59,935 bases of DNA from Verrucomicrobiota bacterium (lineage in GTDB: Bacteria > Verrucomicrobiota > Verrucomicrobiia > Limisphaerales > UBA8199). A model generated the notes under the pieces. The model saw only the letters and a program-made list of their open reading frames with translations, was not told the DNA's origin and ran no database searches. The stretch lies in contig JARKQH010000351.1 of the NCBI GenBank assembly GCA_029974925.1, positions 1 through 59,935 of the forward strand, in the 5' to 3' direction. Shown here one piece after another: positions 103-26,806 of the stretch (position 1 is the first letter of the stretch; each line of letters starts with the position of its first letter). Position numbers and translations under genes: made by a program.

Positions 103-178
103 TTTGAATATGTTGGGATCATATCAGGTGGGGTTGGACAAAGGCTGTCCAGGGGCAATTAAAGAAGCGAATTAGCAT

Positions 179-727: not shown

Positions 728-772
728 GGATGGCGATTCGGGCCGGGCGGCCTGCCTGGGGCACGTGATGGC

Positions 773-4794: not shown

Positions 4795-4830
4795 GGCGCG
4801 GCGTCAGCGGCGAACCCGGACGGGCCGGGG

Positions 4831-6501: not shown

Positions 6502-6648
6502 GGGGACTCGAACGTCATCGTTGCGGTATTGGCTGGTCGGTGGCCGAGGAAATGCCTTCCGCCGCGTTTCGCGGATAGGTAGGACGCGCGATTGGAGGCC
6601 TGGGGGTGTGGCGGGCCGGGCTGAGGTGAAAAACTTTCCTGGGCCATT

Positions 6649-8049: not shown

Positions 8050-8699
8050 AGGAGCCTGGCGGCTTCCTCGATTTTGGCGAGGGTCTCGGGGGTGATGCCG
8101 CCGGCTTTCGCATCTGAGAGGGCGCCTTCGATCCGGCGTTTTTGAGCGGCGACCTTCTCCTGATATTCCTTGAGCCGCTGCTGGAATGCGGCTTTGGCGA
8201 GCGCCAATTCCTCATCCTTGCGTTTGAGGCGTTCGGCGTCGAGGTTGGCGCGTTGTTGGGCGATTTCGGTGGAGCGGAGGGAGGTGAGACCGCGGATGAG
8301 CTCGGCGAGCTCTGCTGGATCATGCTGTTTGTGGTCGGCGGCCGCCTCGGCGGCTTCAAGGAGCTCAAGGATTTTTCCGGCGGCGATGGCGGCAGCGCCG
8401 GCGGCGATGGAAGAATCATTGGCCTTGGCGAGATCGGCGGCGAAGGCGGCAAGCTCTTTGATGCGGTGGGTCCGGTCCTGTTTGCGGAGCCAGTCCTGGT
8501 ATCCTCCCTGACGCCAGTCGGACAGGTTTTGGGCGTTGATCGGCTTGCCGCCGAATCGGGCGGATAGGACCTGGACGGCCTCCGGATGGCTGTTGATCCA
8601 TGGCAGAATGTCCGGTCCAAGCTGGCCGGCCTGGAGCCGGCGGTTGAGTTCCTCGCGCAGGGCCAGGGGGAGGCGCGCGATTTTGCCGATGCGGGCCAT
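8046..8699 (-). CDS. Terminase small subunit (DUF3486/Mu gp27-like)
   Basis: GKIARLPLALREELNRRL N-terminus; stop overlaps the TerL start. Confidence 0.85.
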   Translation of the reverse strand: MARIGKIARLPLALREELNRRLQAGQLGPDILPWINSHPEAVQVLSARFGGKPINAQNLSDWRQGGYQDWLRKQDRTHRIKELAAFAADLAKANDSSIAAGAAAIAAGKILELLEAAEAAADHKQHDPAELAELIRGLTSLRSTEIAQQRANLDAERLKRKDEELALAKAAFQQRLKEYQEKVAAQKRRIEGALSDAKAGGITPETLAKIEEAARLL

Positions 8700-8702
8700 A
8701 GG

Positions 8703-8963
8703 TCAGTGACGTTCGGTGTAGAGGAGGCCTTGGCCGGTGGCGGCGTACCATCTGGAGCGTCCCAGCGGGTCGAAAGCGGCGTGGACGTGGCCCAAAGAGA
8801 TCAGTAGATCGAGCGCGGACTCGACATCAGCTTCGGAGCAGGGGAAGTCGAGCTCGGTTTTGATGCGGCGCAGGATGCCCGCGATGGGCAACGCGGCGGG
8901 GTGGCGGGTGGCCAGGCAATCGAGGACAGCATGGCGCAGGAGCTCTTTATCTTCCGGGGACAT
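8703..8963 (-). CDS. Mu gp26-like small helical/winged-helix protein
   Basis: 86 aa immediately upstream of TerS; LDLLISLGHV...ATGQG pattern. Confidence 0.65.
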   Translation of the reverse strand: MSPEDKELLRHAVLDCLATRHPAALPIAGILRRIKTELDFPCSEADVESALDLLISLGHVHAAFDPLGRSRWYAATGQGLLYTERH

Positions 8964-8965
8964 GG

Positions 8966-9355
8966 CTAAAAGCGGCTATTGATTTTGCCCTCGATGCGGC
9001 CGAGGGCGCGCTCGATATCGGCGAAGGACTTGGCGAGGACGGTGCGGATGGCGTTGTCCTCGGCGCGCATCGTGTTCCAGAGGGCGGTGATTTCGTGATC
9101 ATGGCCATCGAGGCGGCGGCCGATTTCGACGTGCTTTTCGTGGCACTGTGCGACGGTGGCATAGGCTGGGGAGGCGCGGACTTCGAGGGGTTGAGGTTCG
9201 ATCTGGCGCCGCCGGTTGCGGGCGGTGATGATCGAGATGACGGTGGCAGCGCCTCCGGCGATGCCCGTGAGAAACAAGATGGCCTGCTTCAGGAATGTTG
9301 GGTCAACATTCTGCAATTGGGCGAGCATAAGAGCACGACATGCACCGTCCGGCAT
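8966..9355 (-). CDS. Single-TM coiled-coil protein (Mu gp25-like position)
   Basis: Hydrophobic segment AILFLTGIAGGAATVISII followed by a heptad-like region; TGATG coupling with the upstream ORF. Confidence 0.65.
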   Translation of the reverse strand: MPDGACRALMLAQLQNVDPTFLKQAILFLTGIAGGAATVISIITARNRRRQIEPQPLEVRASPAYATVAQCHEKHVEIGRRLDGHDHEITALWNTMRAEDNAIRTVLAKSFADIERALGRIEGKINSRF

Positions 9356-9564
9356 CAGTTATTTTGGGTGGGGAGATAAGCTGGGTCCTGAGTGCGCGCC
9401 CAGAGGGCGGCACGGAATGCAGCTTCATCGGCTGGGGACCATTCGCCGGACTGCATTGCGGCCGAGCGGACGGCCTGAATCCAGGCGATGAGTTTATCCA
9501 GGCCGGTGCTGACGTAAGGCAGGGCAGCCAGGACCATTTGCAGGATGACGATTTCTTTGCTCAT
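9355..9564 (-). CDS. Small phage hypothetical protein
   Basis: 69 aa, tightly packed between neighbours on the same strand. Confidence 0.7.
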   Translation of the reverse strand: MSKEIVILQMVLAALPYVSTGLDKLIAWIQAVRSAAMQSGEWSPADEAAFRAALWARTQDPAYLPTQNN

Positions 9565-9567
9565 GAA

Positions 9568-10158
9568 TTACTCCGGTCTGGGGGCGAGGATGACGGATTC
9601 CCAAGCCTGCGCGAGGTCGAGGGTTTGGCGGAAAGTGGCCAATGCGGTGTAGAGGTCATTGGAGGAGGCGCGGGCGGCGAGGTAGGCGGTCTTGAGGTCA
9701 TCGAGCTGGAACTGGAGCATTAGGGCGCGGGGGATGTTGGTGGGGCCATATTCCGGAGAATCATAGGTTATGGGCGCGCGGAGCCACTCGCAGAATTGAT
9801 GGTAGGCCGGGGCGTTGGTGCGCCAGAAGTCGCGCTGGGTATGATTGACGGCGAGAATGAGGTCGAAGGTGGCGCGGGCTGTTTGCTGGGTTTGCTCGAC
9901 GCGGATGATGAGCGGGTTTGCGTCCGGCTGGAGGGGGGCGCAGGAGACCAGGCAGAGGGATAGGAGGATGATGGGGGCGGATTTACCGAGTCCGGCGCGG
10001 AGGAAGGCCAGAGCGGAGAGGCCGAGCACCGCCAGGACTTTTTCGTCGAACTCGTAGATGCCGGCCCAGACGCCGGCCAGATAGAGGAGGCCGATGATGA
10101 TGGTCAGGTAGGTTTTGCGGCCTTTCAAGAACTCGCGGAGCGTCGAAAACATGTCCAT
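9568..10158 (-). CDS. Holin-like two-TM segment fused to a lipoprotein (internal lipobox); candidate holin/spanin
   Basis: KGRKTYL + two TM helices, then IILLSLCLVSC lipobox and an amphipathic helical domain; first gene of the left arm. Confidence 0.65.
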   Translation of the reverse strand: MDMFSTLREFLKGRKTYLTIIIGLLYLAGVWAGIYEFDEKVLAVLGLSALAFLRAGLGKSAPIILLSLCLVSCAPLQPDANPLIIRVEQTQQTARATFDLILAVNHTQRDFWRTNAPAYHQFCEWLRAPITYDSPEYGPTNIPRALMLQFQLDDLKTAYLAARASSNDLYTALATFRQTLDLAQAWESVILAPRPE

Positions 10159-10311
10159 AGCACTGAAGTTAAAGCATCACTGGTCCCGCCGCGTAAATCG
10201 GTGGTTGCGTATTCGGCGGGGATTGCAGAGATGATTGAAAAGGCCGCAAATAGCGCAAAGCTCGCCAGGTGCGATGGACGTACGAGGAGAGATGGGTTTT
10301 AAGGGAGGCAG
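10159..10311. promoter_or_regulatory. Divergent intergenic region, probable bidirectional late promoter
   Basis: Non-coding gap between oppositely oriented operons; CCCGCCG (10185-10191)/CGGCGGG (10214-10220) inverted pair; GGGAGG RBS before 10312. No clear sigma70 boxes. Confidence 0.45.
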
Positions 10312-12364: not shown

Positions 12365-12784
12365 ATGGCAAGTCCGACAACGACACGCAATTTGCAGGAC
12401 GCGCAGTTGGCCGCGACGGCGAATCTGCCGAATGCGGCCAACACGGTCAATGCCAGCGGGATTGACCTGGGTGCGGCGGCGCCCTACCCGATCCAGGAGA
12501 AATTGACCGCTCAAATCAGCCACACGGCTGCTCCCGGGGCGAACAACAAGAACATAAACTTTGCGCTCCAGGATTCGGCGGACAACACCGCGTTCGCGAA
12601 TGTGTCGCTGATTGCGAATCCGGTGCTGCGGAGCGTGGATGCGAACAACAACGGCCACAGCGCCAACTCCGTGACGATTGCGCTGCCGCCGAGCATTCGC
12701 CGATATATCCGATGTACGGCGACTGGCGAACTGAACGGCGGGGATAGCAGCGCCGGCACGTTCACCTTGAAGCTCCTGTTCTGA
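12365..12784 (+). CDS. Capsid decoration/cement protein (Bbp16-like)
   Basis: 139-aa beta-rich protein after the capsid; GIDLG and LQDSADN-x-x-F motifs; AAAGGA RBS. Confidence 0.65.
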   Translation: MASPTTTRNLQDAQLAATANLPNAANTVNASGIDLGAAAPYPIQEKLTAQISHTAAPGANNKNINFALQDSADNTAFANVSLIANPVLRSVDANNNGHSANSVTIALPPSIRRYIRCTATGELNGGDSSAGTFTLKLLF

Positions 12785-14197: not shown

Positions 14198-14608
14198 ATG
14201 GGGTACGTGACGCAAGCGCAGATTGAGACGGCGATCCCGGGGCCGCGGCTCCGCGACGCATTGGACGACGATGGCGATGGGCAGGCGGACGAGGGGTTGT
14301 TGGATGCGATCATCGCGAGCGTGGATGGAGCGGTGGATGCTTATCTGGCCGGGCTCTATGACGTGCCCTTTGCGACGCCGCCGGCGCCCGTGATCGAGGC
14401 GAGCCTCGTGTTTGCGTGCGAGCGGATCTATGACCGGCGGCCCGGGGCCGAAGATCGCAATCCATGGCGTTCGCGCGCGGATTGGTGGCGGGAGCGGCTG
14501 GAGCGGATCGGCAAGGGAGAGATACCGCTGGATGCGGGGAGTGGGCGGAGCTTCGCGCCTGGGGCGAGCGTGACGGAGAATGTGAGTGTGGATGGGGGGA
14601 TGGGCTGA
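14198..14608 (+). CDS. Head-tail connector (Mu gp36/DUF1320)
   Basis: YVTQAQI...VDAYLAGLYDVP...LERIGKGEIPL pattern. Confidence 0.85.
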   Translation: MGYVTQAQIETAIPGPRLRDALDDDGDGQADEGLLDAIIASVDGAVDAYLAGLYDVPFATPPAPVIEASLVFACERIYDRRPGAEDRNPWRSRADWWRERLERIGKGEIPLDAGSGRSFAPGASVTENVSVDGGMG

Positions 14609-15081
14609 TGACGATTGCGGAACAATTGAAGGCGATCGCAGCGGTATTGAGGCCATGGGCGGAGCGGAACCGGAGCTCGGTGACCATCTTGTCGGACCAG
14701 GTGCACCTGCTGGAACTCTTGCGTCTGAAGCCCGGCGCGGTGCTGATTGGGCTCCTGTTTGAGAGCGAGACCGTGCGGGGGGAATGGGATAACCTTGGGC
14801 GGGTGGACCGGGCATACAAAGTGATTGTGACGCGCGGTCGCGGGCTGAAGCTGGACAGCGGCGAGAGCCTGGTGGGGACCAGCTCGGAGGATCGGCCTGT
14901 ATTCGAGCTGGTGGAGGAGGCGCGGGAACTGGTGCGGACGGCGGAGATTGGCGAGGTTGAGGGACGGCCGGAATATCGCGGGATCGGCCAGTATGAATTG
15001 CAGGGGGCGATATTTGACGGATGGGAAGTGCGATTTGTGATTGGCACGGCGATCCCGGAGTTGGTGGAGGGGGCGTCATGA
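14608..15081 (+). CDS. Tail completion/terminator protein (Mu gp37-like position)
   Basis: Start reassigned to ATG 14608 (TGATG overlap with gp36); 157 aa. Confidence 0.6.
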   Translation: MTIAEQLKAIAAVLRPWAERNRSSVTILSDQVHLLELLRLKPGAVLIGLLFESETVRGEWDNLGRVDRAYKVIVTRGRGLKLDSGESLVGTSSEDRPVFELVEEARELVRTAEIGEVEGRPEYRGIGQYELQGAIFDGWEVRFVIGTAIPELVEGAS

Positions 15082-18000
15082 GCCGATGCGCAGCAGTATT
15101 ATTGGCGATCCTTGGACTGTCCATGCCGGCCTGGGGCGTGACGGTGCGCTTTGCTCTGAGCGATTTCACTGCGCAGCCGGCGGCCAACCGGCGGGTGCTG
15201 GTGGCGCCTTTGGGGCCGACGACGAACGAGAGCGCGGTGGTGTCGGCGGATTTGGCGCGGTACACGACGGATACCAATGGGGTGTTTTGGATGTCGAATG
15301 TGGTCGCTGGATATTATGAGGCGCAGGTGCAGGCGCCGCCGACGCGGAGCACATTGCTGTTCCAGTTTCCGGGCGGGACGAATACGGTGGAGGCGAAGGA
15401 TTACCTGGTGCCGCCGGCGGATGCACCGCTGAATCTGGCTTACACTAAGGCCGAGGTGGATGCGTTGATTGCAGCGGCGGGCGCGGGCGGGGCGCTGACC
15501 AACAACGAGACGCGGGACGTGAGCTTTCAGGGGGCGCTGTCGGTGTCCAGCAATGTGACGGTTGCCTCGCTGGTGTCAATTGACACCCTTGGAGTTGGCC
15601 GGTTCAAGGGGTTGCAGGGTATCGGCGAGGGCGAGCCGGTGCAAGCCCCGGACGGGATTGTCAAGAACGAGTACTGGGAACCATTGGACCTGCCGAGCGG
15701 GTTCAATGTTGGTTACGGAGCAATAATCGCGAATGATGCCGGGAACTTTACCACGTATGGCACGGTCACCGCAGCAGCTTTGGTCGGCAACGGCAACGGC
15801 CTGACCAACCTCACAGCCAGCAATTCCATTGTGGCCGGCACAATCACCACGAACCTGATGGATGCGGCGGCATATGCCTTGTTTGCCAGCAGCGGCAGCG
15901 CCGAGAGTTTGGTGTATAACGTAACGGACTTTGGTGCGAACGGTGCGGACGGTAATGACGACACTGTGGCTATTCAGGCAGCGTTGGATGCAGCGGCGGC
16001 TGGATACGACACCTATACCGGTCGGCGTATCGTGTATCTGCCGGCTGGACGGTACTACATCACCAACACCCTTTGGTTGAAGAATCACGGCATTACCGTG
16101 CGCGGCGATGGCATGTACGCCACCTTAATTCGAATGCAGGCCAACACCAATGCGTTCGGCAGTTGGACCAACCGGGTGCTGTGGTACTGCAACTTTGAGA
16201 AGTTCAATGTTTATAAGGATGTCGTGCTGCAGAGTGTGGCAACCCCGGCAGCGTTCTACTTTGTGGCGCCGGATTCGAAGCAAGTGGCACATCGGTTTAG
16301 GTTCGATGAGGTGGGGTGCAGCGGGTTTTACTATGGAATCTATGTGCGGCACGCTGTGGGACTGTACGCTCAGCGGTGCGAGTTTTACGGGTGCAATTAC
16401 GCCTTCTACATGGAGAAGAGTGATGCGACCACGTTTGTGAACTGTCACGCCGGGGACGCCTACGACTCGCAAAGTGCGATAGCCTCGGCTACGAACCGGT
16501 TTGGGGCCACGCATTCGGCTGCGTGGACATACAAGAACACCCCTACAGCCTCCAGGGGGTTTTCGCTGGTAGTGATTGGGGGAGAGTCCCGGCGGGTGGA
16601 TAACGTGTTCGACCTCCAGTCTGGCGTGGTGAATATCGTAGGGACTCATTGTGAGCTGATTTATGACAGCTTGTTGAAGGCGTCCGGGTCTGGTGTCTCC
16701 GGCGGTATCGTGTCTGGTCTCTCGTGCGTGAATCTGGTGGAGAGCCGGACACCGCACGCAGCCATGCGGTTTTTGGATGGCACCGGCAGGCGGTTTTCTC
16801 TCGGACCCTGTTATTGGCCGTACAGCCGCCCACTGGCGCAGGTGGAGCAGGCGGGGGATTATGTGCACTACACCGGCCAGCCAGTGTTGATGAGCAATAC
16901 CGTTTCGAGCATCAGTTGGTACATGCCCGTGGCTACGAACAAGGTGGTGGTGGCGGCCGGGAACAATGTGACCGTGACGCCATCGCAGTCTGGGCCAGTG
17001 ACCACTTACACCGTGGCTGCCACTGGCGGCAGTGCTGCACCGACGCCAGCGCGGGTGTACACCACCAACTACACCGTGGACCTAAGCCAGAGCGGATACC
17101 TGGAGTTGGTGAGCACAGGGGAGGCGTTTGGCTTATCCCTGAGCAATGCGGGCGAGCGGTCGGTCACGGTGCTGACGACGACCAATCCGATCAATTACGT
17201 GTCCTGGCCGCGCGCGTGGTGGTCGGCGGGTGAGCCGTCCGGCCTCGGTTACAACTACGCGCTGCGGATGCGGATTCAGCGGGTGAACAGTGATGACGTA
17301 GCGCACATCACAGCCTCAGAGGTCGAATGCGCGCCGCTGGTGGATGAGGACGCGCAAGCCTTCCTAGACCGCGCGGGCATCACCGACGCTACCATCAGCA
17401 ATGCGGTGCAGGGCCTGGTCGTAGCCTTGAAGGCGACCAACTTGTGGTCCAAGGCTGATGCCATTTTCCCGTTTGTGGGCGGGACAAGCAACAGCACGCG
17501 GATGAATCTGCGACGGGACGACAAGCACATTGTTTGGGGCAACCAAGTGACGTTTGATGCGGATGGCGTGTGGGGCAAGAAGGGGCTTGCGCCGGGGGTG
17601 GGACGCGGCGAGTTCGCATGGGACTTCACGAGCACGACGAACCAATTTCAGACCAACGCCTGCTCGATTGGGTGGTACATCGGGGTGACACATACGAACG
17701 TCGCGAACAACGAAAACGTTGTATGCATGGGCGCGTTTTCGTTTGGTGGCCGCAGTGTGTTTGGTTGCTGGGCACAATATGGCACGAATCTCAATGGCCA
17801 ACTGTGTGGCTGGACCACTGTGGGCACGACGGGTGCATCGGAGTTTCGTGGGGCGACGGTCGTTTCGCGAACCAACAGCACGAGCTTGTTTGGTGTTGGG
17901 CGTATTACCGCGTCCAGCACGTCATCGAGCACGACCGGCACGCCTACGAGCGCGACGCAATTTGGCATCCTCGGCGCGGACGACGGCGAGGCGCAGAACT

Positions 18001-18125
18001 ACCTATGCTACCCCGGTCAGCTTCGGTTTGCGTGGGTGGGCGGTGCGCTCAGCGCGAATGAGGCGTTGGAACTCAAGCGGTTGATGGACGTGTTTAACAC
18101 TGCCTTGGGTCGGGCGGCGCCGTGA
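15078..18125 (+). CDS. Tail-spike-like depolymerase with N-terminal signal peptide, Stf-like N domain, beta-helix and C-terminal lectin-like domain
   Basis: Start at ATG 15078 (ATGA overlap). MSRCAAVLLAILGLSMPAWG signal; VYNVTDFGA...DDTVAIQAA...VYLPAGRYYI beta-helix entry motif; DEDAQAFLDRAGITD...LWSKADAIFPFVGG phage domain. Confidence 0.85.
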   Translation: MSRCAAVLLAILGLSMPAWGVTVRFALSDFTAQPAANRRVLVAPLGPTTNESAVVSADLARYTTDTNGVFWMSNVVAGYYEAQVQAPPTRSTLLFQFPGGTNTVEAKDYLVPPADAPLNLAYTKAEVDALIAAAGAGGALTNNETRDVSFQGALSVSSNVTVASLVSIDTLGVGRFKGLQGIGEGEPVQAPDGIVKNEYWEPLDLPSGFNVGYGAIIANDAGNFTTYGTVTAAALVGNGNGLTNLTASNSIVAGTITTNLMDAAAYALFASSGSAESLVYNVTDFGANGADGNDDTVAIQAALDAAAAGYDTYTGRRIVYLPAGRYYITNTLWLKNHGITVRGDGMYATLIRMQANTNAFGSWTNRVLWYCNFEKFNVYKDVVLQSVATPAAFYFVAPDSKQVAHRFRFDEVGCSGFYYGIYVRHAVGLYAQRCEFYGCNYAFYMEKSDATTFVNCHAGDAYDSQSAIASATNRFGATHSAAWTYKNTPTASRGFSLVVIGGESRRVDNVFDLQSGVVNIVGTHCELIYDSLLKASGSGVSGGIVSGLSCVNLVESRTPHAAMRFLDGTGRRFSLGPCYWPYSRPLAQVEQAGDYVHYTGQPVLMSNTVSSISWYMPVATNKVVVAAGNNVTVTPSQSGPVTTYTVAATGGSAAPTPARVYTTNYTVDLSQSGYLELVSTGEAFGLSLSNAGERSVTVLTTTNPINYVSWPRAWWSAGEPSGLGYNYALRMRIQRVNSDDVAHITASEVECAPLVDEDAQAFLDRAGITDATISNAVQGLVVALKATNLWSKADAIFPFVGGTSNSTRMNLRRDDKHIVWGNQVTFDADGVWGKKGLAPGVGRGEFAWDFTSTTNQFQTNACSIGWYIGVTHTNVANNENVVCMGAFSFGGRSVFGCWAQYGTNLNGQLCGWTTVGTTGASEFRGATVVSRTNSTSLFGVGRITASSTSSSTTGTPTSATQFGILGADDGEAQNYLCYPGQLRFAWVGGALSANEALELKRLMDVFNTALGRAAP

Positions 18126-18147
18126 TAAAGGACAGACAAGAGAAAGG

Positions 18148-19479
18148 ATGAATATGCAGAACGAACGACGTAAGTGGAAATCGGCGGCGCTGGTGGCGGC
18201 GCTGGCAGTGGCGCTGCTGGCCCTGGCGCCGCCGGCCAGGGCGGAGACATATTGGAGCGCGAAGGATGGCATGCCGTGGCCGTGGAATCCGGGCTGGCCG
18301 GCGCTGTGGCTCAGCAACAGCCCGAGCGGGGAGCACCACTTGCTCCTGGATAACGACCAGGCTGTGGTGGCCACGGCGCAGGGCTTGCTCAGCGGGGCGA
18401 TCGCGATGGAGAGCCTACAGGAGGACCCACCGACACCGCCAGGGGGCGGAGGCGGGGGCGGCGAGCCGGAACCGGAGCCCTATACGAATGCCCTGGTGCA
18501 GGTGATCGGGATGATGTGTTACAGCAACCTGACGCCGGTGACATGGGGGCTGCGGGACGGCAGCGGACGTGACCAGAGCTGGCCGAACTGGACAGTACCC
18601 AGTCCGCCCATAGACCCCAACGGCGGGACTATGCACGTGCTCTGGGAAAACCCGGACCCCGCCCTGATGAGCAGTCAGGAATGGACCGGATTCTGCATTG
18701 TGGACATTACGAAGGAGTTCGACGGGCAGACTGTCACACTACGAACCAACGACGTGCAGACTGTTACGTTTCCCCCTGAGGTGGCCGTCTCGCCATACTT
18801 CGGGCTCTCCTTCCAGTTTACACCCACGACGTTCACATTCGTGTTTGCCTGGACGAACGAACAAGGCCAGGTCGCCACGGCCTATTCCAATCACGTGTTC
18901 CACGCCCCGGACCTGACAGGAAAATTGGACACCAACCTGTTTTTATATTGGGCCACGAACAGGTTTGCCTTCACGAATGAGACGCAGTATTGGCAGCACA
19001 CGGCCGTCTTGTGGGCTTATCCGTATTTTAAGGTGGAAACCAATCAAAACTCCGAGGTGAAGACAAACTGGCACTTTATCACGCACGTGCTCAACCCGGT
19101 GGGACACTGGATGGCGCGGAAGGGGTATGTGACCCAGGAGCTTGAGCGCGGCATCAAGGAACTCTATGGCAACCAGTTTGACAGCCCGTTTGGCGGGCTG
19201 GGTGGTGGGGGTTTTGGCCGCGGATATTACATTCCGCGCGAGCGGCAACGGCGCTGGACCGGCGAGGACTTTCTGCGCGAGTTTGGCACAGACGGCGACC
19301 GCCCTGTGGAAGTACCCCCAAGCCAGCTCTACAATCCGCCACGCGAAAGGTACAATGGGGTGCCGAGCTACGAGATCATCGTGATCACCAACGTCCCGCC
19401 AGGAGGCATGTGGGTGACATGCGAACTAGTGCCCTACGGTTGGCAGTATGAAGGCACCAATGTCTGGACCTATCCTTAG
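18148..19479 (+). CDS. Exported hypothetical protein with Pro/Gly linker
   Basis: Clear signal peptide ...AALVAALAVALLALAPPARA|E; PPTPPGGGGGGGEPEPEP linker; beta-rich body. Confidence 0.8.
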   Translation: MNMQNERRKWKSAALVAALAVALLALAPPARAETYWSAKDGMPWPWNPGWPALWLSNSPSGEHHLLLDNDQAVVATAQGLLSGAIAMESLQEDPPTPPGGGGGGGEPEPEPYTNALVQVIGMMCYSNLTPVTWGLRDGSGRDQSWPNWTVPSPPIDPNGGTMHVLWENPDPALMSSQEWTGFCIVDITKEFDGQTVTLRTNDVQTVTFPPEVAVSPYFGLSFQFTPTTFTFVFAWTNEQGQVATAYSNHVFHAPDLTGKLDTNLFLYWATNRFAFTNETQYWQHTAVLWAYPYFKVETNQNSEVKTNWHFITHVLNPVGHWMARKGYVTQELERGIKELYGNQFDSPFGGLGGGGFGRGYYIPRERQRRWTGEDFLREFGTDGDRPVEVPPSQLYNPPRERYNGVPSYEIIVITNVPPGGMWVTCELVPYGWQYEGTNVWTYP

Positions 19480-19650
19480 AATAGCAGCTTGCGGATGAGC
19501 CAGCAAACTGGTGCGGCGGCGCCGCTTGTGTGCCACGGAATAAGGAACATGACGACCAAAGGTTTAAGGAAGGATATGCCGAGCACGACGTGGGTGAAGG
19601 TCGTCGCGCCGGCGGCCAAAAGGCCAACCTTGAACCAAGAGTCCGTGCTC

Positions 19651-20154
19651 ATGCGCTGGCGCAGCCTAACCCGGCTGGCGTTACGAATCAAGCTTTGGGT
19701 GCTGGTGGCTGGGTGGGTTGAAGCCGTGTGGGCCGCCGAGCCGCCAGCGCTGCCGCCGCTGCCGGCCGCGCCGGCGCCGGGCCGGGTGAGTGTGACGCTG
19801 GCGTGGGAGGCGAGCCCAAGTCCGGAAGTGACACGGTACCGGGTGTACTGGGGGCCAAGCAAGGGACAATACACAAATTATGTGGAAACGCCGTTGCGGG
19901 TGCTGACGATCCCAGGGCTCATGCTCCCGCAATACTTTGCGGCGACGGCGGTAAGCAGCAACGGGCTGGAAAGCGCGTTCAGTGACGAGGTGGGCGGGCG
20001 GCCTGTGACGGTCGTGTGGGTGCAGGGGCGCACAAACCTGACCAGCGGACAGGGGTGGACGAGGTGGACGGAGTTGGCGGAGGCGGTGGTGGATAGGGCG
20101 CGGCTGCCGGAGCAGTTGTACCTCAGACTGCGGATGACGAATGAGTGGCGATGA
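19651..20154 (+). CDS. Exported fibronectin type III-like protein
   Basis: VTLAWEASPSPEVTRYRVYWG...YFAATAVSSNGLESAFSDEV FN3-like motif after a signal-like N-terminus; start uncertain (in-frame upstream ATGs exist). Confidence 0.75.
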   Translation: MRWRSLTRLALRIKLWVLVAGWVEAVWAAEPPALPPLPAAPAPGRVSVTLAWEASPSPEVTRYRVYWGPSKGQYTNYVETPLRVLTIPGLMLPQYFAATAVSSNGLESAFSDEVGGRPVTVVWVQGRTNLTSGQGWTRWTELAEAVVDRARLPEQLYLRLRMTNEWR

Positions 20155-20405
20155 GCGCGAGGGTTGACAGGTCTGGGTATCCAGGGGGATGGCAGGGGCT
20201 GACGCAGCGGGAGTGGGAGGTGGCGATCGCGCTGGCGCGGGACAGGAGTGTGAAGGAGATTGCAGCGGAGCTGGGGGTGAGCGCGAAGACGGTGGAATAT
20301 TATTGGGCACGGATCAAGGCGAAGGTTGGGGTGCGGAGCTATGTGGGGCTCACGCTGTGGATGGCGAGGCGGGGCCTGTTGAGATTTCCGGGGCGCGAAA
20401 AATGA
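20151..20405 (+). CDS. Stand-alone LuxR/GerE-type helix-turn-helix protein
   Basis: LTQREWEV...KEIAAELGVSAKTVEYYWARIKAKVG; ATGA overlap with the upstream gene. Confidence 0.9.
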   Translation: MSARVDRSGYPGGWQGLTQREWEVAIALARDRSVKEIAAELGVSAKTVEYYWARIKAKVGVRSYVGLTLWMARRGLLRFPGREK

Positions 20406-20415
20406 ATACTGAACT

Positions 20416-20808
20416 ATGAGCACGCCTGTAATTAAACCGAGTGGCAATATTGCCATACTGTGGGGCACGGACAATGCAATGAGTGCGCCGAGCGGGGCGC
20501 TGATTGATACACTGCAGCTCACGCCGAAGAATGGCTCGCCGATCGAGATCGAAGGCAATCAGGGGTTCACCGCGATCCAGGTGGGCCTGCGGGATGGGTT
20601 CGATGCGCGAGCGACCTGTGTCTATGATGCCAATAAGGCATACCCGAAAGAGGGGGACACGGTGATCCTGGTGGGGCCGAAGCAAGACGGGAATAGCGGG
20701 ACCACAAACTACAACTGCACGTTTTGGGCCTGGCAATTCGGCCGCGCGAAGAAGGGGCAGGCGACGATCGAGTTGATGTTCACGCATCGGCCGGACATCA
20801 ACGGGTGA
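20416..20808 (+). CDS. Probable major tail tube protein
   Basis: 130-aa beta-rich protein upstream of the chaperone/tape measure; assignment mainly by position. Confidence 0.55.
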   Translation: MSTPVIKPSGNIAILWGTDNAMSAPSGALIDTLQLTPKNGSPIEIEGNQGFTAIQVGLRDGFDARATCVYDANKAYPKEGDTVILVGPKQDGNSGTTNYNCTFWAWQFGRAKKGQATIELMFTHRPDING

Positions 20809-20831
20809 AGTGGGACCGATAGCCAGGAGCC

Positions 20832-21926
20832 ATGAGGACGATCATGCGGAGGGCTGGCTGGTGCATCGCGGCGGCGGCGCTGGGGTGCTGCTGGAGTGTC
20901 GCGGCGCAGTTCGCGACGGTGACTGGCACGATCCTGGGCTGGACGAATTGCACGGGCCCGGGCACGAACGTCAGTTTCACGCCGGATTCGCCATATATCC
21001 TGGTCGGGACGAACCTGTATGTGACGAGCCGGCAGGAGGCGCCCATCGGGACCGACGGGAGCTTCGGACTGCAATTGGCTCCCGGGGGATACAAGGTGCG
21101 GATGCCTGGAGTGCCCGGATATGTGCCGATTGTCGTGCCGGACACGACGAACACCTATGTGTTCAGCGAGTTGGTGACGAATGCGCCGACGTTCAACTGG
21201 ACGAACTATGTCTATCCGGTGCCGATTGCGGCCTGGGCGGCATACGATGCCGGATCGAGCACGCTGGATTTGACGGAGGCGACAAATCTGGCGGCGGGGC
21301 AGACGGTGGTGCTGGACTTGCTGGTCGTGACGAACCGCGGGATATATGGGGCGATTTGGGGGGCGATTTATTTGGATGCGACAAGTCGGGCGGTGGCAAT
21401 CGGGCTGGACCCGATCTGGACGAACGGGCAATCGAGTTTGATTGTGGGGGATGGGGCCGGGGTATCGGGGAGTCACTCGGCCGCCGTCGGGCTGCGCGCG
21501 GAGGTGGTGGATGGGGCGAGCTGTGTGGCGCTGGGGGAAGATGCGAGCGCGAGCGGTTTCAGCAGCATTGCCATCGGCAACTATGCGAGCGCGACGGCCA
21601 ACGGGTCCGTGGCGATCGGGGCGCTGGGGGCCGCGGCCGGGGCAAATACGATCGTGATCAATGCGCTGGGGAGCGGACTGGAAGAGACCAATATCCAGCG
21701 GGTGGTGCTGGCCGGGGCAGGGATCCGGTTGGTCGGGGAAGTTTTTGGGGCGGGCCCGCTGGCCATGACCAACGGGTACTACTTCCCGAGCAACGCGCTG
21801 AGCGCCTGGCCGGCGGCGCCACGGAGCGAAGGGGAGGCATTCATTGGGAACTCCAATGGTGTCGTCTATCTGCTGACGTCGGGGACGGGTTTGAGTTGGA
21901 CGAGCACGAACAAACTTGGACCATGA
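20832..21926 (+). CDS. Tail-fibre/adhesin-like protein with signal peptide, Stf-like N domain and YadA-head repeats
   Basis: MRTIMRRAGWCIAAAALGCCWSVAA|Q signal; TVTGTI...DGSFGLQLAPGGYKV N domain; repeats AVAIG, SAAVG, CVALG, SIAIG, SVAIG. Confidence 0.8.
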   Translation: MRTIMRRAGWCIAAAALGCCWSVAAQFATVTGTILGWTNCTGPGTNVSFTPDSPYILVGTNLYVTSRQEAPIGTDGSFGLQLAPGGYKVRMPGVPGYVPIVVPDTTNTYVFSELVTNAPTFNWTNYVYPVPIAAWAAYDAGSSTLDLTEATNLAAGQTVVLDLLVVTNRGIYGAIWGAIYLDATSRAVAIGLDPIWTNGQSSLIVGDGAGVSGSHSAAVGLRAEVVDGASCVALGEDASASGFSSIAIGNYASATANGSVAIGALGAAAGANTIVINALGSGLEETNIQRVVLAGAGIRLVGEVFGAGPLAMTNGYYFPSNALSAWPAAPRSEGEAFIGNSNGVVYLLTSGTGLSWTSTNKLGP

Positions 21927-21927
21927 G

Positions 21928-22488
21928 ATGAGCGACGCGGACGAATTGTATCCAGGGCAGAAACGGGAAGTGGCGGAGCGGGCGGCGCGGGAGGCGGCAT
22001 ACGCGCAGGCGAATGGGGCGGTGTTGCCCGGGCCATTGGCTGAGGCGATTGAGCCGGAGCCGGTCGAGGTGGCCGGGTTGCGGGTGCGGCGGGTGGTACA
22101 TTACGATTTCGTGTTGCTGCGGCGGCTCAACAGCCCGCTGCTGAAGCAACTGGCGCGTGCGGCCGAGGGCCAAGCAGGCGGGACGGAGTTTTCGGACGAG
22201 GATGCGTACGTGATGGTCTGGCAGTTTACGCGGCCGGTGCGCGAGGCGGCGGCCTATCTGGCGGAGCATGGGGCTAATGGCGTGAGGGCGGCAGCGCTGG
22301 AGAGCATCGGATGCGCGTTGGGCCCGGTGGAGGTGGGATTGCTGGTCCAGGCGGTGGAACGTGAGTTCGTGCGGGCGCTGAGCACGGTGGTGAAATATGA
22401 ACCGGCGAGGCCCGCGGGGGCAGATGGCGGAGGCGCGGTTTTTATGCCGCCACCAGCGGGCCGGATGACGGGCTCGGCTGGTGGCTAG
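21928..22488 (+). CDS. Tail assembly chaperone (lambda gpG-equivalent)
   Basis: Directly upstream of the tape measure, with a slippery site near its 3' end. Confidence 0.75.
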   Translation: MSDADELYPGQKREVAERAAREAAYAQANGAVLPGPLAEAIEPEPVEVAGLRVRRVVHYDFVLLRRLNSPLLKQLARAAEGQAGGTEFSDEDAYVMVWQFTRPVREAAAYLAEHGANGVRAAALESIGCALGPVEVGLLVQAVEREFVRALSTVVKYEPARPAGADGGGAVFMPPPAGRMTGSAGG

Positions 22489-22688: not shown

Positions 22689-23996
22689 ATGGCTGGAGTC
22701 CTGTCATTCACGCTGGGGCTGGAGGGCTCGAATTTTCTGCGGACTTTGGGCATGGCCTCGGGGCAGGTGTTGAGCTTCGCGGCCGTCATGGAGGGGGTGA
22801 GCCGGATTGCAGGGGCGACCTGGGCGCAGATCGAGCGGGGGGGCGCGCTGAGCGATTTGAGCGCGCGGACGGGCGAGAGTGTGCGCGGCTTGTATCAACT
22901 GGAGGAGGCGCTGAAGGTGGCGGGATTGGGTGCGGGTTCGTTGGCGCCGATGCTGGGACAGTTGCAGCAGGCCATGAGCGGCATTGATATGCGGGGGGAG
23001 CGGACGGAGAAGGTTTTCTGGGCGCTGGGGCTGGACTTGGAGCAGTTGCGCAAGGCCGGCGCGGTGGAGCAGTTCGAGGCGCTGGCTGGGGCGCTGGGGC
23101 AACTGGACAAGACGAGCGCGGCCGGGGTGGCGGCGAAGTTGTTTGGGCGGGAAGGGGGCGGCGCGTTTTTGCAGGTGGCGCGGGACATGGCTGGATTTCG
23201 GGAGGCACTTGCTGCGAGTGCGCAGACGGCCGCCTTGTTTGAGGAGCGTGCCCGGGCGTTTGACCGCATTGGGGATACGCTGACGATCATCAAGAGCCGG
23301 GTCGGGGGCTTGTTCGCCGGGATAGCCGAGGGAGCCGCGCCGGCGCTGCAGGCGATCTTGGATTTCGTCAATGGTCTGGATTTCGAGGGGATCGGCCAGC
23401 GGATTGGGGGGATTTTGACGGCCATCACGCAGGCGTTCCGCGAGGGGCGGGTGAGCGAATTGATAGCGGTGTCCATTCACGCGGGTTTGGTGGCGGGATT
23501 CAAGGCGCTGCCGGATTTGGTCATTGCCGGTTTTGCGAAGGCTCTGGAAAATAAATACGTCAAGATGGTCATTGGGGCCACCAGTCCGCTGGCCTTGGCT
23601 GGATTGGAGCTGTACAAGGGGCCGGGACTGAGCTGGTCTGAGATCAGCAAAGGTGCGCTGGCGAGCATGTTGGACGATCTGGGGGAGGCAGGGGCTCCGT
23701 TGCAGAAGCTGATTGATGAGTTGGTGCAGAATGCCGGTGCGCCTCGGCCTGCGGTGTCTGGGGCGAAGCTGGGGCGGAGTTTGTCGGGGTTGCTCCAGAG
23801 CGAGGGGAAGGGCTACAAGCCTGAGTTCACCGAGATCGAAAAACTGGGCTTTGTGTTTACTGGCGGTGGCCCTGGAGCGCTGGATTACCAGCGGCAGACG
23901 AGCGTCAATACGGCGAAGATGGTGGACTTGTTCAAGATTGGGCTCGATCTGCTGACGCAACAATTGCGGGCGGCGACATTCGCGAATATCGGATGA
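22689..23996 (+). CDS. Tape measure protein (short, 435 aa)
   Basis: Ala/Gly/Leu-rich helical protein; LSDLSARTGES, KLFGREG motifs; hydrophobic central part. Confidence 0.85.
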   Translation: MAGVLSFTLGLEGSNFLRTLGMASGQVLSFAAVMEGVSRIAGATWAQIERGGALSDLSARTGESVRGLYQLEEALKVAGLGAGSLAPMLGQLQQAMSGIDMRGERTEKVFWALGLDLEQLRKAGAVEQFEALAGALGQLDKTSAAGVAAKLFGREGGGAFLQVARDMAGFREALAASAQTAALFEERARAFDRIGDTLTIIKSRVGGLFAGIAEGAAPALQAILDFVNGLDFEGIGQRIGGILTAITQAFREGRVSELIAVSIHAGLVAGFKALPDLVIAGFAKALENKYVKMVIGATSPLALAGLELYKGPGLSWSEISKGALASMLDDLGEAGAPLQKLIDELVQNAGAPRPAVSGAKLGRSLSGLLQSEGKGYKPEFTEIEKLGFVFTGGGPGALDYQRQTSVNTAKMVDLFKIGLDLLTQQLRAATFANIG

Positions 23997-24277
23997 AAAT
24001 TGTGAGCTTAAAAGTGGCAGGCATAGAGGAGACACCGGCGGCGGCGCCGGCGGGACCGAGGCAAGTGGTGGCGGATGAGCCGGAGCCGGGGTTTATTCGG
24101 AAGATCACGCTAGGCCCGGAGGGATTGATGATTTGCCGGGGGGAGGTGGCGGTATTGGTGCCGCTGAGCGGGCTGATAAGCGTGGCATTGGAGGCGGAGC
24201 CGGCATTGCGAGCGGCGTGTGAGTCGAGCATTTGCCACGATGGCAACAGCAGAACTAATAAGACTGCAGGGGAGTGA
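23993..24277 (+). CDS. Hypothetical tail-region protein
   Basis: 94 aa; overlaps both neighbours by 4 nt. Confidence 0.65.
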   Translation: MKIVSLKVAGIEETPAAAPAGPRQVVADEPEPGFIRKITLGPEGLMICRGEVAVLVPLSGLISVALEAEPALRAACESSICHDGNSRTNKTAGE

Positions 24278-25008
24278 TGGCGGCGACACCGACATACGTA
24301 GGGGCGATAGCGACTCTGGCGGAGGACCCGGGGTCGCCGCAGACCGTACTTGGGGAGTCGGTGGTCAGGACGCGGACCTACCGCGGGACCTACGCGGTAT
24401 GCGCGGCGTCGGCATTGCCGCGGGGGACATTGGGGACGGGGGACGAGACGGGGTTCATTGTGCGGCAATGCACCTACGCGCGGGAGAAGGGGGACCGGGG
24501 GATATTGGTGGTCGAATGGGAGGCCACGGCCGGGAGCATATTACCAGCCCCACCGGATGAGTTCAGCCTTGAGCCGTTCGACATCAACCCGAGGGTGGAG
24601 CGGCATCCGAATTTCCAGAATGTGACCGCTCAAGAATTGGCGCAGATTTGGCAGGCGCGCAACGGGGCAACGGCGGATGAGCGGGATGAGGCGCTGCATT
24701 GGGTATATAAAAACGGCAGAGAGCATGCGGTGGTGCTTGTGGACTTGGTCGTCAAGGGAGTCGAGAATTACTATTTGAGCGGCTTGAAGTTTACGCAGTT
24801 GATTCACAGCTACGCGGCGCCGAGCTGCAGTTTGGGTGGATTTGTCCAGATGCCATTCGGGGCCGGATCAGGCTTGATCCCGAGCGGGGCGAGCTGGCTG
24901 CGCAAAGCGGATGGGCTGACATGGAGCGGCGGCGTCTATAAACTGACCAGGACATGGGTGGGCGCGCCGCTCGGCCATTGGGACCCGGTGATATATCCCG
25001 TGGTATGA
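24274..25008 (+). CDS. Putative distal tail/hub protein
   Basis: 244 aa after the tape measure; RTRTYRG and W-x-LTRTW patterns; positional call. Confidence 0.55.
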   Translation: MMAATPTYVGAIATLAEDPGSPQTVLGESVVRTRTYRGTYAVCAASALPRGTLGTGDETGFIVRQCTYAREKGDRGILVVEWEATAGSILPAPPDEFSLEPFDINPRVERHPNFQNVTAQELAQIWQARNGATADERDEALHWVYKNGREHAVVLVDLVVKGVENYYLSGLKFTQLIHSYAAPSCSLGGFVQMPFGAGSGLIPSGASWLRKADGLTWSGGVYKLTRTWVGAPLGHWDPVIYPVV

Positions 25009-25931
25009 GGTCTCCACTACGAGTTGGGCAGGATGCCAGGAGGAACTGGCGCAGGATTAACGAGCTGGATGCGGCCTTGGCCAGGACGGATCGCGCCGTA
25101 GAGGCCCAGGGGATTGAGCTGGCGGGGATGGGGAGATTGGCGGCATATCAGGGGTTGGGATTGCATCCATTCCGGCTATACCGGCTGACTTTGAGGCGGG
25201 TGGGGTGGAGCGGAGGCGCCGAGTGGCGGACTTTCCGCGTGCGGGCGGGGCGAGTGATGGGCACGGATGTGACGTCCGGGACGGATGGTGTGGCTGATCC
25301 CGACGGGGGTGTGAAGCCGGATGGGCCATTCGATGTGGTGGTGCCGGAGAATTGTCCGAGGTATTGGTTCTGGCTGGATTTGAGCGGGACGCCGACGGTG
25401 CGACATGGGGAGGACCCAGCACAATCCGGCTGGAGCGGATGTCCGGAGCCGGATGCGGAGCATGTGCCGATTGGGTGGGTGGATACGCGCAGCAAGGCCG
25501 CCGAGGGTATCGCGGTAGTCCGGCAGTTTTTGCGGGGCGATGTAGTGGTGGCCGGAGGGGGCGGCGCGGAGGTGAAGCGGTACCGCGTGAAAAGCGTCTC
25601 GGCGAATTATCTGGTTTGCCGCACGTGGGATGGCGCGAATGAGGGCGGGGCGGATGTCAATGTGGCCAAAGCGCCGGAGCTGCGACATGTGGCGAGTGAG
25701 GCTGTGGAGGGGATCACGATCTCTTACACGTATCAGTCGCGGCCCGACAATCTGGATGGCCAGCGGCTTGCCAGCGCGGCCGGGTTTGCCACCCAGACCG
25801 AGATTGTGATCCCGGTGTGGCGTGTGAACTCGGAGATTTGGGCGGTGAAGCCTTCCGGGGGCACGGGTGTGACCGAGGCGGCTTGGTTGGACCTGAATGC
25901 GGCCGGGCGGATGTGGTGCCAGGTATTGTAA
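25005..25931 (+). CDS. Putative tail tip/baseplate protein
   Basis: Start reassigned to ATG 25005 (ATGA overlap); N-terminal coiled coil then beta domains; 308 aa. Confidence 0.6.
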   Translation: MRSPLRVGQDARRNWRRINELDAALARTDRAVEAQGIELAGMGRLAAYQGLGLHPFRLYRLTLRRVGWSGGAEWRTFRVRAGRVMGTDVTSGTDGVADPDGGVKPDGPFDVVVPENCPRYWFWLDLSGTPTVRHGEDPAQSGWSGCPEPDAEHVPIGWVDTRSKAAEGIAVVRQFLRGDVVVAGGGGAEVKRYRVKSVSANYLVCRTWDGANEGGADVNVAKAPELRHVASEAVEGITISYTYQSRPDNLDGQRLASAAGFATQTEIVIPVWRVNSEIWAVKPSGGTGVTEAAWLDLNAAGRMWCQVL

Positions 25932-26806
25932 TGAGCATCCCTGCCAGCAGCATGTTGGGAAGCAGCCTGCGGAGCTCGATGCAAGGCGCAATGCTCCGCG
26001 AAGCGAGACGGGTCGGCATGTTATGCAGGGAGCATTTTGTTCTGCCAAATGCTATCTACCGGACGGAATGGTGGGCGGCCGATTCGGCGCATATTGCGGC
26101 GTCACACAGATTCATCGTAACATCATATGGCCCACCTGATACTCCATGGCCAACCATGTCGCATATTGAGACCAAGATCGTGGAGGCGCCGGGATGGACG
26201 TTGACAAGCGGGGCGTGGCAATTGCCCATGTGGGCGGTGCAATCTACCGGCGACCACTTCATCATCAATCGCGTTCCGGGATCATACAACGCCACGTATT
26301 TCACCACGATGGGTTCCATGGTCTTCCCGCAGCCTGGCGGCGAAATTTCCGATTCGATATTTCTGCGTCGTGGGCGATGGCGCATCACATATCAAGCGGA
26401 GATCGGCGATGTTGCGTTCTTCACTACTCAGGTGCAGGTGGGAGAATTTGAATATCAAGTCGAACATCGGGATTACGCAATTTTTGAGATATGGATGACA
26501 CCGCGCTGGAGCAGCATGGCGGCCAATAGCGTGCCGGGATCGAATTGGCTGCCGCCGGCGATGTGGGTGCCTGGCTCTGGGCCTGACCCGCGCGCCAAAT
26601 TAGTGGTGCGGGAATTAATAGGCCGGAACGGCTCGATCAGTGGCCAGCGTGAGCTCGATTTGTTCGACGGATGTTATTGGGCTGGATGGGTCTCAACGTT
26701 GGCTCTTGGCGATTACTACGTTTTTCCGGATTATATCCCCTGGCGGTGGCCGATCGGAGAAGAACAGTTCGGATCATATCTTGATGTCTGGTTTGAACGG
26801 ATCTGA
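25931..26806 (+). CDS. Last prophage gene, putative receptor-binding/tail protein
   Basis: Start at ATG 25931 (TAATG overlap); 291 aa, Trp/Tyr-rich, lower GC than neighbours. Confidence 0.65.
   Translation: MSIPASSMLGSSLRSSMQGAMLREARRVGMLCREHFVLPNAIYRTEWWAADSAHIAASHRFIVTSYGPPDTPWPTMSHIETKIVEAPGWTLTSGAWQLPMWAVQSTGDHFIINRVPGSYNATYFTTMGSMVFPQPGGEISDSIFLRRGRWRITYQAEIGDVAFFTTQVQVGEFEYQVEHRDYAIFEIWMTPRWSSMAANSVPGSNWLPPAMWVPGSGPDPRAKLVVRELIGRNGSISGQRELDLFDGCYWAGWVSTLALGDYYVFPDYIPWRWPIGEEQFGSYLDVWFERI

Follow-up and report, generated by a model that had tools for sequence, protein, structure and literature searches.

The window analysed here is a 59,935-nucleotide (nt) stretch of DNA from a Verrucomicrobiota bacterium, contig C481 of a 5.7-Mb assembly of 487 contigs, and its bases 1 to ~26,800 are a Mu-like prophage. 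Two genes of the prophage late operon, p1015 and p364, encode predicted Sec-exported proteins that look like a receptor-binding spike and fibre and share a beta-sandwich domain at their predicted mature N-termini. With somewhat less than even confidence, the favoured reading is that both proteins are exported and join the virions after the inner membrane has been breached. Two further signal-bearing genes, p443 and p167, lie between them. The original prediction, made from the sequence of the window, stands as far as signal-bearing proteins with a receptor-binding build in a structural operon are concerned; its single block needs splitting into a spike pair and a regulator cassette. The four genes are as follows.

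p1015: 15078..18125, + strand; signal peptide (residues 1-20), N-domain (21-110), linker, pectate-lyase-type beta-helix (~242-674) and C-terminal domain (756-1015)
p443: 18148..19479, + strand; signal peptide (1-32), near-invariant N-domain (33-~112) ending in a Gly/Pro linker, and hypervariable C-terminal region
p167: 19651..20154, + strand; N-terminal signal peptide or signal anchor, Pro-rich linker, FN3-like domain and small C-terminal domain
p364: 20832..21926, + strand; signal peptide (1-25), second copy of the N-domain (28-115), YadA-head-like repeats (~200-300) and C-terminal module, the C-module (308-364)

Phage and prophage contigs taken for comparison are designated L001-L004, L086, L088, L096, L100 and L101, and compared proteins P0004, P0007, P0008 and P0009.

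Signal peptides of the late genes

Signal peptides were called from the anatomy of the n-, h- and c-regions and from conservation, which was the main test. Among 20 late genes on the + strand, only those starting at 15078, 18148, 19651 and 20832 encode a strongly hydrophobic N-terminal segment after a basic start, with Kyte-Doolittle maxima over 10 amino acids (aa) of 2.89, 3.08, 1.94 and 2.26, respectively; the maxima of the remaining late genes were 1.97 or lower and never N-terminal. All four N-termini comprise a basic n-region, an uncharged hydrophobic core and small residues at -3/-1, except that the h-region of p167 contains a Glu. The anatomy of Sec (signal peptidase I) substrates, with a basic n-region, an h-region of 7-15 residues and small residues at -3/-1 within the first ~35 residues, was found in p1015, p443 and p364. 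Cleavage was predicted after MSRCAAVLLAILGLSMPAWG (before V) in p1015, after MNMQNERRKWKSAALVAALAVALLALAPPARA (before E) in p443, after MRTIMRRAGWCIAAAALGCCWSVAA (before Q) in p364 and after MRWRSLTRLALRIKLWVLVAGWVEAVWA (before A) in p167. The p1015 signal is short, with a single basic residue, and its start is preceded 6 nt upstream by GGAGG. A second in-frame ATG lies two codons past 18148 (at 18154) and four codons past 20832 (at 20844), leaving the signals of p443 and p364 unchanged. The start of p167 is ambiguous, with ATG codons upstream of 19651 at 19495, 19549 and 19576; L088, a near-identical prophage, has unrelated sequence upstream and matches p167 only from the hydrophobic segment onwards.

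The signals were conserved in every complete homologue examined, from six phage loci (including L001, L003, L004, L086 and L100). A classical-looking, strongly hydrophobic N-terminus was also found in 71 of the 97 C-module proteins of at least 250 aa, the remainder being mostly fragments, proteins with known wrong starts (P0004 and P0009) or repeat-protein false positives. Across about 70 members of this family, the signal-peptide anatomy is kept while the sequence drifts. Since the conserved domains begin 0-3 residues past the predicted cleavage, true starts downstream of the hydrophobic segments, a possibility raised by the original prediction, are excluded for three genes, and the upstream starts have support for three of the four. 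The basic residues ahead of the hydrophobic core predict an N-in/C-out topology, with the bulk of the protein exported. Hydrophobicity scoring, the starts and conservation in homologues thus bear out the claim of four Sec-like N-termini in the late operon, and the same signal-bearing pattern in unrelated uncultured phages points to a system-level feature rather than an annotation accident.

It is very improbable that these N-termini are something other than export signals, namely the products of wrong starts, helices buried in a fibre or baseplate, or tethers to the cytoplasmic face of the membrane. The ambiguous start of p167 and the short p1015 signal with its one basic residue would suit such an explanation, which has to contend with conserved domains that start right past the cleavage sites and leave no room for downstream starts, with an anatomy retained despite drift, with the N-in/C-out prediction and with the FN3 domain of p167, which is native to secreted host proteins.

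Other export routes and purposes were considered. The p443 n-region contains RR, its homologue P0008 is without it, and the NCBIfam scan gave no match to TIGR01409, the model of the twin-arginine motif S/T-R-R-x-F-L-K, so the Tat route was rejected for p443. A lipoprotein reading of p364 (AALG before CC) was judged unlikely, as residue -3 is Ala rather than Leu, Val or Ile and the Cys is not conserved in the family. Export for oxidative (disulfide) folding was likewise rejected, with 0.83% Cys in the signal-bearing and 0.77% in the other structural proteins. Many predicted cleavage sites in the C-module family precede Gln, as in p364 and most of the L001 and L002 proteins. This recalls the pyroglutamate 'Q-rule' that is said to apply to signal peptidase I substrates of Bacteroidota.

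Spike- and fibre-like proteins p1015 and p364

The beta-helix of p1015, recognised as a spike in the original prediction, matched PF12708 with 48 bits (cut-off 27). The protein also matched the tail spike family phrog_2234 (E 1e-7) and the pectin lyase of PDB entry 7chu (E 5e-8). The L001:7228-10032 protein shares with p1015 the signal and first domain (30% identity) and the C-terminal domain (38%). The PM2-like element L086 encodes a signal-bearing protein with a beta-helix related to that of p1015 (42% identity over 465 aa). In the genome of the host itself, a 2.2-kb contig carries a signal-bearing protein (C229:1056-2204, reverse strand) that is 30% identical to p1015 residues 217-360, covering the linker and the start of the beta-helix. 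Several C-module proteins have the same type of mature N-terminus (GSLFTYQGRL..), and the C229 protein may be a second prophage spike.

For p364, the proposed YadA head was close to recognition: PF05658 scored 23.9 bits, just below the cut-off of 25, and weak matches to PDB heads of trimeric autotransporter adhesins (TAAs) were obtained (E 0.003-0.05). A YadA-type autotransporter was rejected, since the YadA_anchor barrel was not matched in Pfam or NCBIfam and the protein ends in the C-module instead. Only the C-module was confidently modelled by AlphaFold, the remaining protein being unmodelled, and Foldseek against PDB and BFVD gave nothing under E 0.1 for p364. Word-based protein searches returned almost no relatives of p1015, p364 and p443. 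The p364 relatives found in this way share only the last ~57 residues and differ in their bodies, which are YadA-like or SGNH-like. No homologue of p1015, p443 or the C-module was found in cultured phages.

From these domain matches, p1015 and p364 look like receptor-binding proteins, and the family scans recognised no other candidate receptor-binding protein in the prophage. Both are joined to structural genes: the p1015 ATG overlaps the stop of the preceding late gene as ATGA, and the p364 stop lies two bases before the ATG at 21928. This coupling by overlap or near-zero gap points to late expression at the structural level. A promoter and terminator scan of the region gave no signal above chance and was uninformative. 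The translational coupling claimed for the four genes therefore stands for 15078 (ATGA), for 19651 into the LuxR-type gene (ATGA at 20151) and for 20832 into the next gene; it does not extend to the upstream sides of 18148 and 20832, which are preceded by gaps of 22-23 nt.

Shared N-terminal domain

N-domain copy 1: 15138..15407, + strand; 90 aa, directly at the predicted mature N-terminus of p1015

The beta-sandwich noted behind the signal in two of the proteins proved to belong to a wider family. Iterated hidden Markov model searches collected family A4, with 14 distinct proteins including p1015, p364, the 934-aa protein of L001 and the 947-aa protein of L003, and in 14/14 members the domain starts 0-3 aa past the predicted cleavage site. 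It is carried by two proteins per phage, namely p1015 and p364 in the window and the 519-aa and 947-aa proteins in L003. One docking domain common to several proteins is the usual design of receptor-binding proteins.

Weak outside similarity of the N-domain was limited to CarboxypepD_reg (E 5e-4, below the cut-off), NOMO repeats and transthyretin-type proteins. In other Verrucomicrobiota genomes, its profile touched only CarboxypepD_reg repeats of giant secreted proteins. The resemblance to the attachment domain of the lambda Stf tail fibre, proposed in the original prediction, was not upheld: there was no PF08400 hit at E<=10, and hhalign of the 14-member profile against residues 1-150 of lambda orf-401 gave a probability of 0.2%. 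Only contigs that also carry a tape measure gene (the window, L001, L003) yielded the beta-sandwich; the PM2-like L086 and L100 did not, nor did L004. Pfam and PHROG scans of the alternative N-terminal parts, in L086 and others, revealed no anchor family; these parts may resemble a common N-terminal motif of fibres.

C-terminal module

C-module: 21753..21923, + strand; 57 aa, ..NALSAWPxAPRxxGEAFxGNSNGVVYLLTSGxGxxWTSTNKLxP, a three-stranded beta-meander at the extreme C-terminus of p364

Profile A3, built from six sequences, was searched against 1.84 billion cluster representatives and matched 252 of them at E<=1e-3 and 103 at E<=1e-10, nearly all at the extreme C-terminus. The family thus comprises at least 252 clusters, and almost all of its full-length members bear a signal peptide. 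In the AlphaFold model (50-row alignment), the module is a short helix with a three-stranded meander, with predicted local distance difference test (pLDDT) values of 81-95. The enzyme types joined to this one C-module vary and include SGNH-like and beta-helix proteins. The genome of the host holds one copy, and none was found in 400 other Verrucomicrobiota genomes (0/400), from which we conclude that the module is virus-borne. It had no match in Pfam or NCBIfam, and a pattern scan for it in the genome_contigs collection gave no result. A host sorting tag of the PEP-CTERM type or of the type IX secretion system (T9SS) C-terminal domain type was rejected on the grounds of the single own-genome copy, the absence from the phylum sample and the lack of a model match.

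Relatives across virus morphotypes

The C-module family is present in siphovirus-like, podovirus-like and PM2-like (tailless) genomes. Three to five consecutive signal-bearing genes follow the tail genes and precede the holin and endolysin in L001 and L002. In L003 (from IMG/VR), signal-bearing proteins of 519 and 947 aa are encoded between the tube/chaperone genes and the tape measure gene. In the low-GC contig L004 (also IMG/VR), the terminase, portal, scaffold and capsid genes are followed by two signal-bearing ones, of which the first encodes 171 aa and the second a 919-aa beta-helix protein with the C-module at its end. L086 and L100/L101 encode coat protein P2, the double jelly-roll protein of PM2-type viruses, for which PF18628 and PF25513 reached or exceeded their cut-offs, as well as several consecutive small membrane proteins and a holin. 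Membrane proteins aside, L086 and L100 each have a single large protein, and this one bears a signal: in L100 it is 665 aa long, with a Pect-lyase beta-helix and the C-module, and in L086, where no other large protein is encoded, 836 aa. In the L086 protein, the C-terminal part corresponds to the YadA-like region of p364, with 78% identity in the C-module, and the N-terminal part differs. Distal domains are thus common to a Mu-like siphovirus and a membrane-containing virus without a tail, both of similar GC, and the part adjacent to the cleavage site is swapped.

Several features of these contigs were recorded in addition. Small proteins with clear signals are encoded directly past the major capsid gene in L003 (1451-1945, 164 aa) and L004 (6390-6905, 171 aa), where decoration-protein genes usually sit; they are unrelated to each other and to window 12365-12784. 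L001:14001-14552 and L002:13809-14399, which adjoin the holin and endolysin genes, encode signal-bearing proteins with an aromatic C-terminal residue (..VAWRF and ..FKLSF), as in outer-membrane barrels, and may be part of an unusual lysis cassette. In L003, a cold-shock-domain-like open reading frame (7334-7640) reads stop-free into the signal-bearing 947-aa gene. The L003 proteins of 519 and 947 aa have homologous signal peptides, which implies that gene and signal were duplicated together.

The p443-p167-LuxR cassette

LuxR/GerE-type helix-turn-helix (HTH) protein: 20151..20405, + strand; 84 aa, PF00196 with 54 bits, 39% identical to the LuxR protein of L086 and 46% to that of L096

The assignment of all four genes to one spike/fibre block fits p1015 and p364. 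It does not extend to p167, which is linked to the LuxR-type gene by a fusion in L096, or to p443, a hypervariable cassette protein. The single open reading frame L096:967-1650 encodes a GerE HTH (residues 6-62), a hydrophobic transmembrane segment GMGLIGLIGLIGQMGV, a Pro-rich linker and FN3, and its C-terminal part is 74% identical to p167. It thus combines in one chain the HTH, single transmembrane segment and extracytoplasmic domain that mark a membrane-spanning one-component regulator. In the window, p167 runs into the LuxR gene by an ATGA overlap at 20151, and coupling of a signal-FN3 gene into a LuxR gene is conserved in the window, L088 and L086. Three host paralogues of the p167 FN3 (C112, C323 and C307), 44-53% identical to it, each immediately follow the signal peptide in a large secreted protein with repeats; such an FN3 seems to be the usual opening domain of exported proteins in the host. 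On these grounds, p167 is predicted to be not a fibre but an exported or membrane-anchored FN3 partner of the adjacent LuxR protein. The two would together form a split membrane-spanning regulator, and the pair is a candidate phage-borne signalling device spanning the membrane. Directly before the fused open reading frame, L096:855-974 carries a 40-aa C-module remnant (75% identical to the p364 end) in a segment with no open reading frame of at least 60 aa; it looks like a recombination scar at a module boundary.

Two relatives of p443 were found (P0007 and P0008), both with the signal kept. In their alignment (A2), the first ~80 mature residues and the Gly/Pro linker are almost invariant, and the C-terminal 320 residues are 40-50% identical. 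The C-region is exchanged between the otherwise near-identical prophages of the window and L088 (stretch 18479-19686). A digester run, X3, at ~40x coverage shows the alternative allele of L088, with 18479-19686 replaced by 1175 other bases; the rest of the region matches at ~98-99% (47-71 differing bases per 2.7-3.7-kb piece). The same run also replaces 19975-20052 by 76 bases and 20161-20268 by 139 bases. The variable spots thus comprise the p443 C-domain, the p167 n-region, part of FN3 and the N-terminus of the LuxR protein. No family was found for p443 in Pfam or PHROG, no usable fold was obtained (AlphaFold pLDDT 29), and IMG/VR searches with p167 and p443 gave no result. In L086, the p443 homologue is located at the prophage end beside the integrase; ahead of it come an FN3-like gene (96 aa, with a signal) and a LuxR gene. 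We regard p443 as a hypervariable, predicted exported protein, probably cargo or partner within the cassette, and the trio behaves like a mobile accessory cassette. The earlier argument from translational coupling against unrelated morons was accordingly half right, as it does not hold for this trio.

A cargo role for the whole block in lysogenic conversion, the lysogen displaying or secreting adhesins, biofilm modifiers or superinfection-exclusion factors under LuxR control in the manner of the Eib adhesin and regulator cassettes of E. coli prophages, appears improbable. It would accommodate a LuxR-type gene inside the block that is tied to p167 by the L096 fusion, the L086 trio beside the integrase, which is a typical cargo position, the hypervariability of p443 between near-identical prophages and the YadA-like repeats. 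Such a role fits the cassette better than the two spikes. The genes of p1015 and p364 are joined translationally to structural genes, promoter and terminator signals stay at chance level, and p364 is without an autotransporter anchor.

Virion assembly or free enzymes

According to textbook accounts, the receptor-binding proteins of tailed phages and of PM2-/PRD1-type viruses are cytoplasmic during assembly. Exported spikes are therefore paradoxical, because virus particles are built in the cytoplasm. In the leading reading, which we hold tentatively, p1015 and p364 would be the receptor-binding spike and fibre of the prophage, made together with the late structural genes. A cleavable Sec signal would export them, leaving the shared 90-aa beta-sandwich as the mature N-terminus. 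Next would come the glycan-cutting beta-helix in p1015, and in p364 the YadA-like adhesive repeats with the C-terminal beta-meander. They would fold and trimerise in the periplasm, where they may already act on envelope glycans. Once the holin opens the inner membrane, the spikes would meet fibre-less particles built in the cytoplasm and dock through the N-domain. The exported or anchored FN3 protein p167 would work with the LuxR DNA-binding protein as the split regulator. Docking is preferred because the proteins are built like receptor-binding proteins, with a docking-type domain at the mature N-terminus of two proteins per phage; because the N-domain changes with the virion type while the distal domains are kept; and because of the coupling to structural genes with no alternative receptor-binding protein visible.

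Several points weigh against docking. Addition of fibres outside the cytoplasm is not known from any tailed phage. One of the three small distal tail proteins (244, 325 and 292 aa), for which no family match was obtained, might be the real receptor-binding protein. The N-domain fold class is common in secreted cell-surface proteins of the phylum and could serve for envelope anchoring instead. The gene positions are unusual for fibres and moron-like (before the tube gene here and between the chaperone and tape measure genes in L003), and the drop in GC skew over 16-20 kb suggests recent exchange. Only seven contigs underlie the link of N-domain type with virion type, and any relatedness of the tail modules between the window, L001 and L003 is slight or below detection.

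A somewhat less likely alternative is that p1015 and p364 are free exported enzymes or adhesins that are never on the particle. Exported late to the periplasm or the cell surface, they would strip or mask the phage's own receptor or loosen the capsule or slime, so that progeny are spared from debris and can escape; the likeness to receptor-binding proteins would come from targeting one glycan. The signal peptide is then explained with no topological problem, and a cell-encoded analogue is known in WceF of Pantoea, a tailspike-fold trimer with a Tat signal (PMC7949094). An N-domain fold class typical of secreted host proteins, gene positions that differ between relatives, domains common to virus types infecting similar hosts and the attachment of SGNH-like or beta-helix enzymes to one C-module all agree with free enzymes. 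The prophage and the PM2-like elements would, however, be left with no recognisable receptor-binding protein, and lysis would release such enzymes regardless. It would also go unexplained why two proteins per phage have a common domain placed precisely at the mature N-terminus, and why the N-terminal part is swapped with virion type while distal parts are kept.

Docking of exported spikes, if extended to the relatives, would mean that a broad set of Verrucomicrobiota viruses, tailed and PM2-like, build their particles in two compartments. Heads, tails and capsids would be cytoplasmic, and Sec-exported spikes would dock by the newly cut N-terminus between holin opening and outer-membrane rupture; through the LuxR protein, an exported FN3 sensor coupled to it would adjust late transcription to the condition of the envelope or of the exported pool. 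This generalisation is speculative, and we consider it rather unlikely as a whole. If the spikes join particles, a new assembly route would follow, with a bearing on host-range prediction, phage engineering and viral dark matter. If they stay free, the true receptor-binding proteins would be hidden and a receptor-directed enzyme kit would be exported, a little-studied form of host-surface management at lysis.

Comparison with known systems

No description of signal-bearing tail fibres was found in the literature, the nearest analogues being WceF and the mosaic adhesive trimer (MAT) proteins of Bdellovibrio. WceF of Pantoea stewartii is a trimeric tailspike-fold glycanase whose N-terminal export signal is removed and which acts on the cell's own exopolysaccharide (PMC7949094). 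It is encoded by a chromosomal gene of the exopolysaccharide cluster and has a Tat signal, whereas p1015 and p364 are phage-encoded, carry Sec-type signals with no match to the Tat model and are coupled to virion genes. The MAT proteins of Bdellovibrio bacteriovorus are phage-fibre-like mosaic trimers that are exported and presented outside the cytoplasm; they have the N-terminal part in common, and their tips vary (PMC10769870). They are cellular proteins of a predator, encoded outside virus structural operons, and are likened here by description, not by sequence.

Tailed phages with P22 gp9-type spikes, or with several spikes that have one N-terminal docking domain in common, resemble the p1015/p364 pair in the pectate-lyase-type beta-helix, the PHROG tailspike match and the late-operon position. 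With tailspike and fibre proteins in general, the pair has in common the order of N-terminal anchor, variable enzyme or adhesin and distal tip, a shared N-domain and distal exchange between unrelated virus types. It differs in the cleavable Sec-type signals, which known spikes are without, in gene positions before the tube and chaperone genes and in the lack of a cultured homologue. The Eib/YadA-type TAAs of E. coli lambdoid prophages are, like p364, prophage-borne and signal-bearing, with YadA-head-like repeats, and are encoded near tail genes and a LuxR-type gene; unlike them, p364 has no C-terminal beta-barrel anchor, ends in the 57-aa C-module, stays under the Pfam cut-off for YadA_head and is coupled to late genes. 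The lambda lom and bor morons are also genes for exported proteins among the tail genes of a temperate phage, but they have their own promoters and encode outer-membrane barrels or lipoproteins, whereas the present proteins are large, built like receptor-binding proteins and translationally coupled. L096:967-1650 shares with ToxR/CadC-type regulators a cytoplasmic N-terminal HTH, one transmembrane segment and a periplasmic domain. It differs in having a GerE/LuxR-type HTH rather than an OmpR-type winged helix and FN3 as the periplasmic part; in the window, the two halves are separate proteins from coupled genes and would interact. What sets the present case apart from ordinary ones is that distal domains move between three virus morphotypes and that no signal-less alternative receptor-binding protein is visible in the examined elements.

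Neighbouring genes and setting

The remaining genes around the block are as follows.

14198-14608: neighbour upstream of the 157-aa gene; matches PF07030 (Mu Gp36) and the head-tail adaptor family phrog_195
14608..15081, + strand: 157-aa late gene in the position of Mu gp37; its stop overlaps the p1015 start as ATGA (sequence 15070-15081)
20416..20808, + strand: 130-aa late protein with no signal, presumed tail tube by position; conserved in L088 and located between the cassette and p364, with no family match in Pfam, PHROG and NCBIfam scans
21928..22488, + strand: late gene at the tail-chaperone position; starts 2 nt past the p364 stop and is weakly similar to L001:204-743
22689-23996: tape measure gene, downstream of 21928..22488
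23993-24277, 24274-25008, 24954-25931 and 25928-26806: distal tail genes, the last three encoding the proteins of 244, 325 and 292 aa

The prophage genes recognised comprise the large terminase, portal, MuF-like protein, protease, major head protein, Mu gp36-type adaptor and tape measure. The contig start cuts the prophage off, and no endolysin family was recognised among the scannable leftward genes (window 1-10200). The host RpoB is 90-94% identical to that of metagenome-assembled genomes of the Verrucomicrobiota/Limisphaerales type, which makes the host a diderm Verrucomicrobium. No RNA runs covering the region were found. The stretch from 14 to 23 kb of the window is contained in at least 20 metagenome runs from sludge, wastewater and digesters. 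The GC skew at window 16000-20000 is 0.11-0.13, compared with 0.24-0.33 in the flanking late genes, and the GC content falls to 0.59-0.62; these values would fit a later exchange affecting the p1015 body and the p443-p167 stretch.

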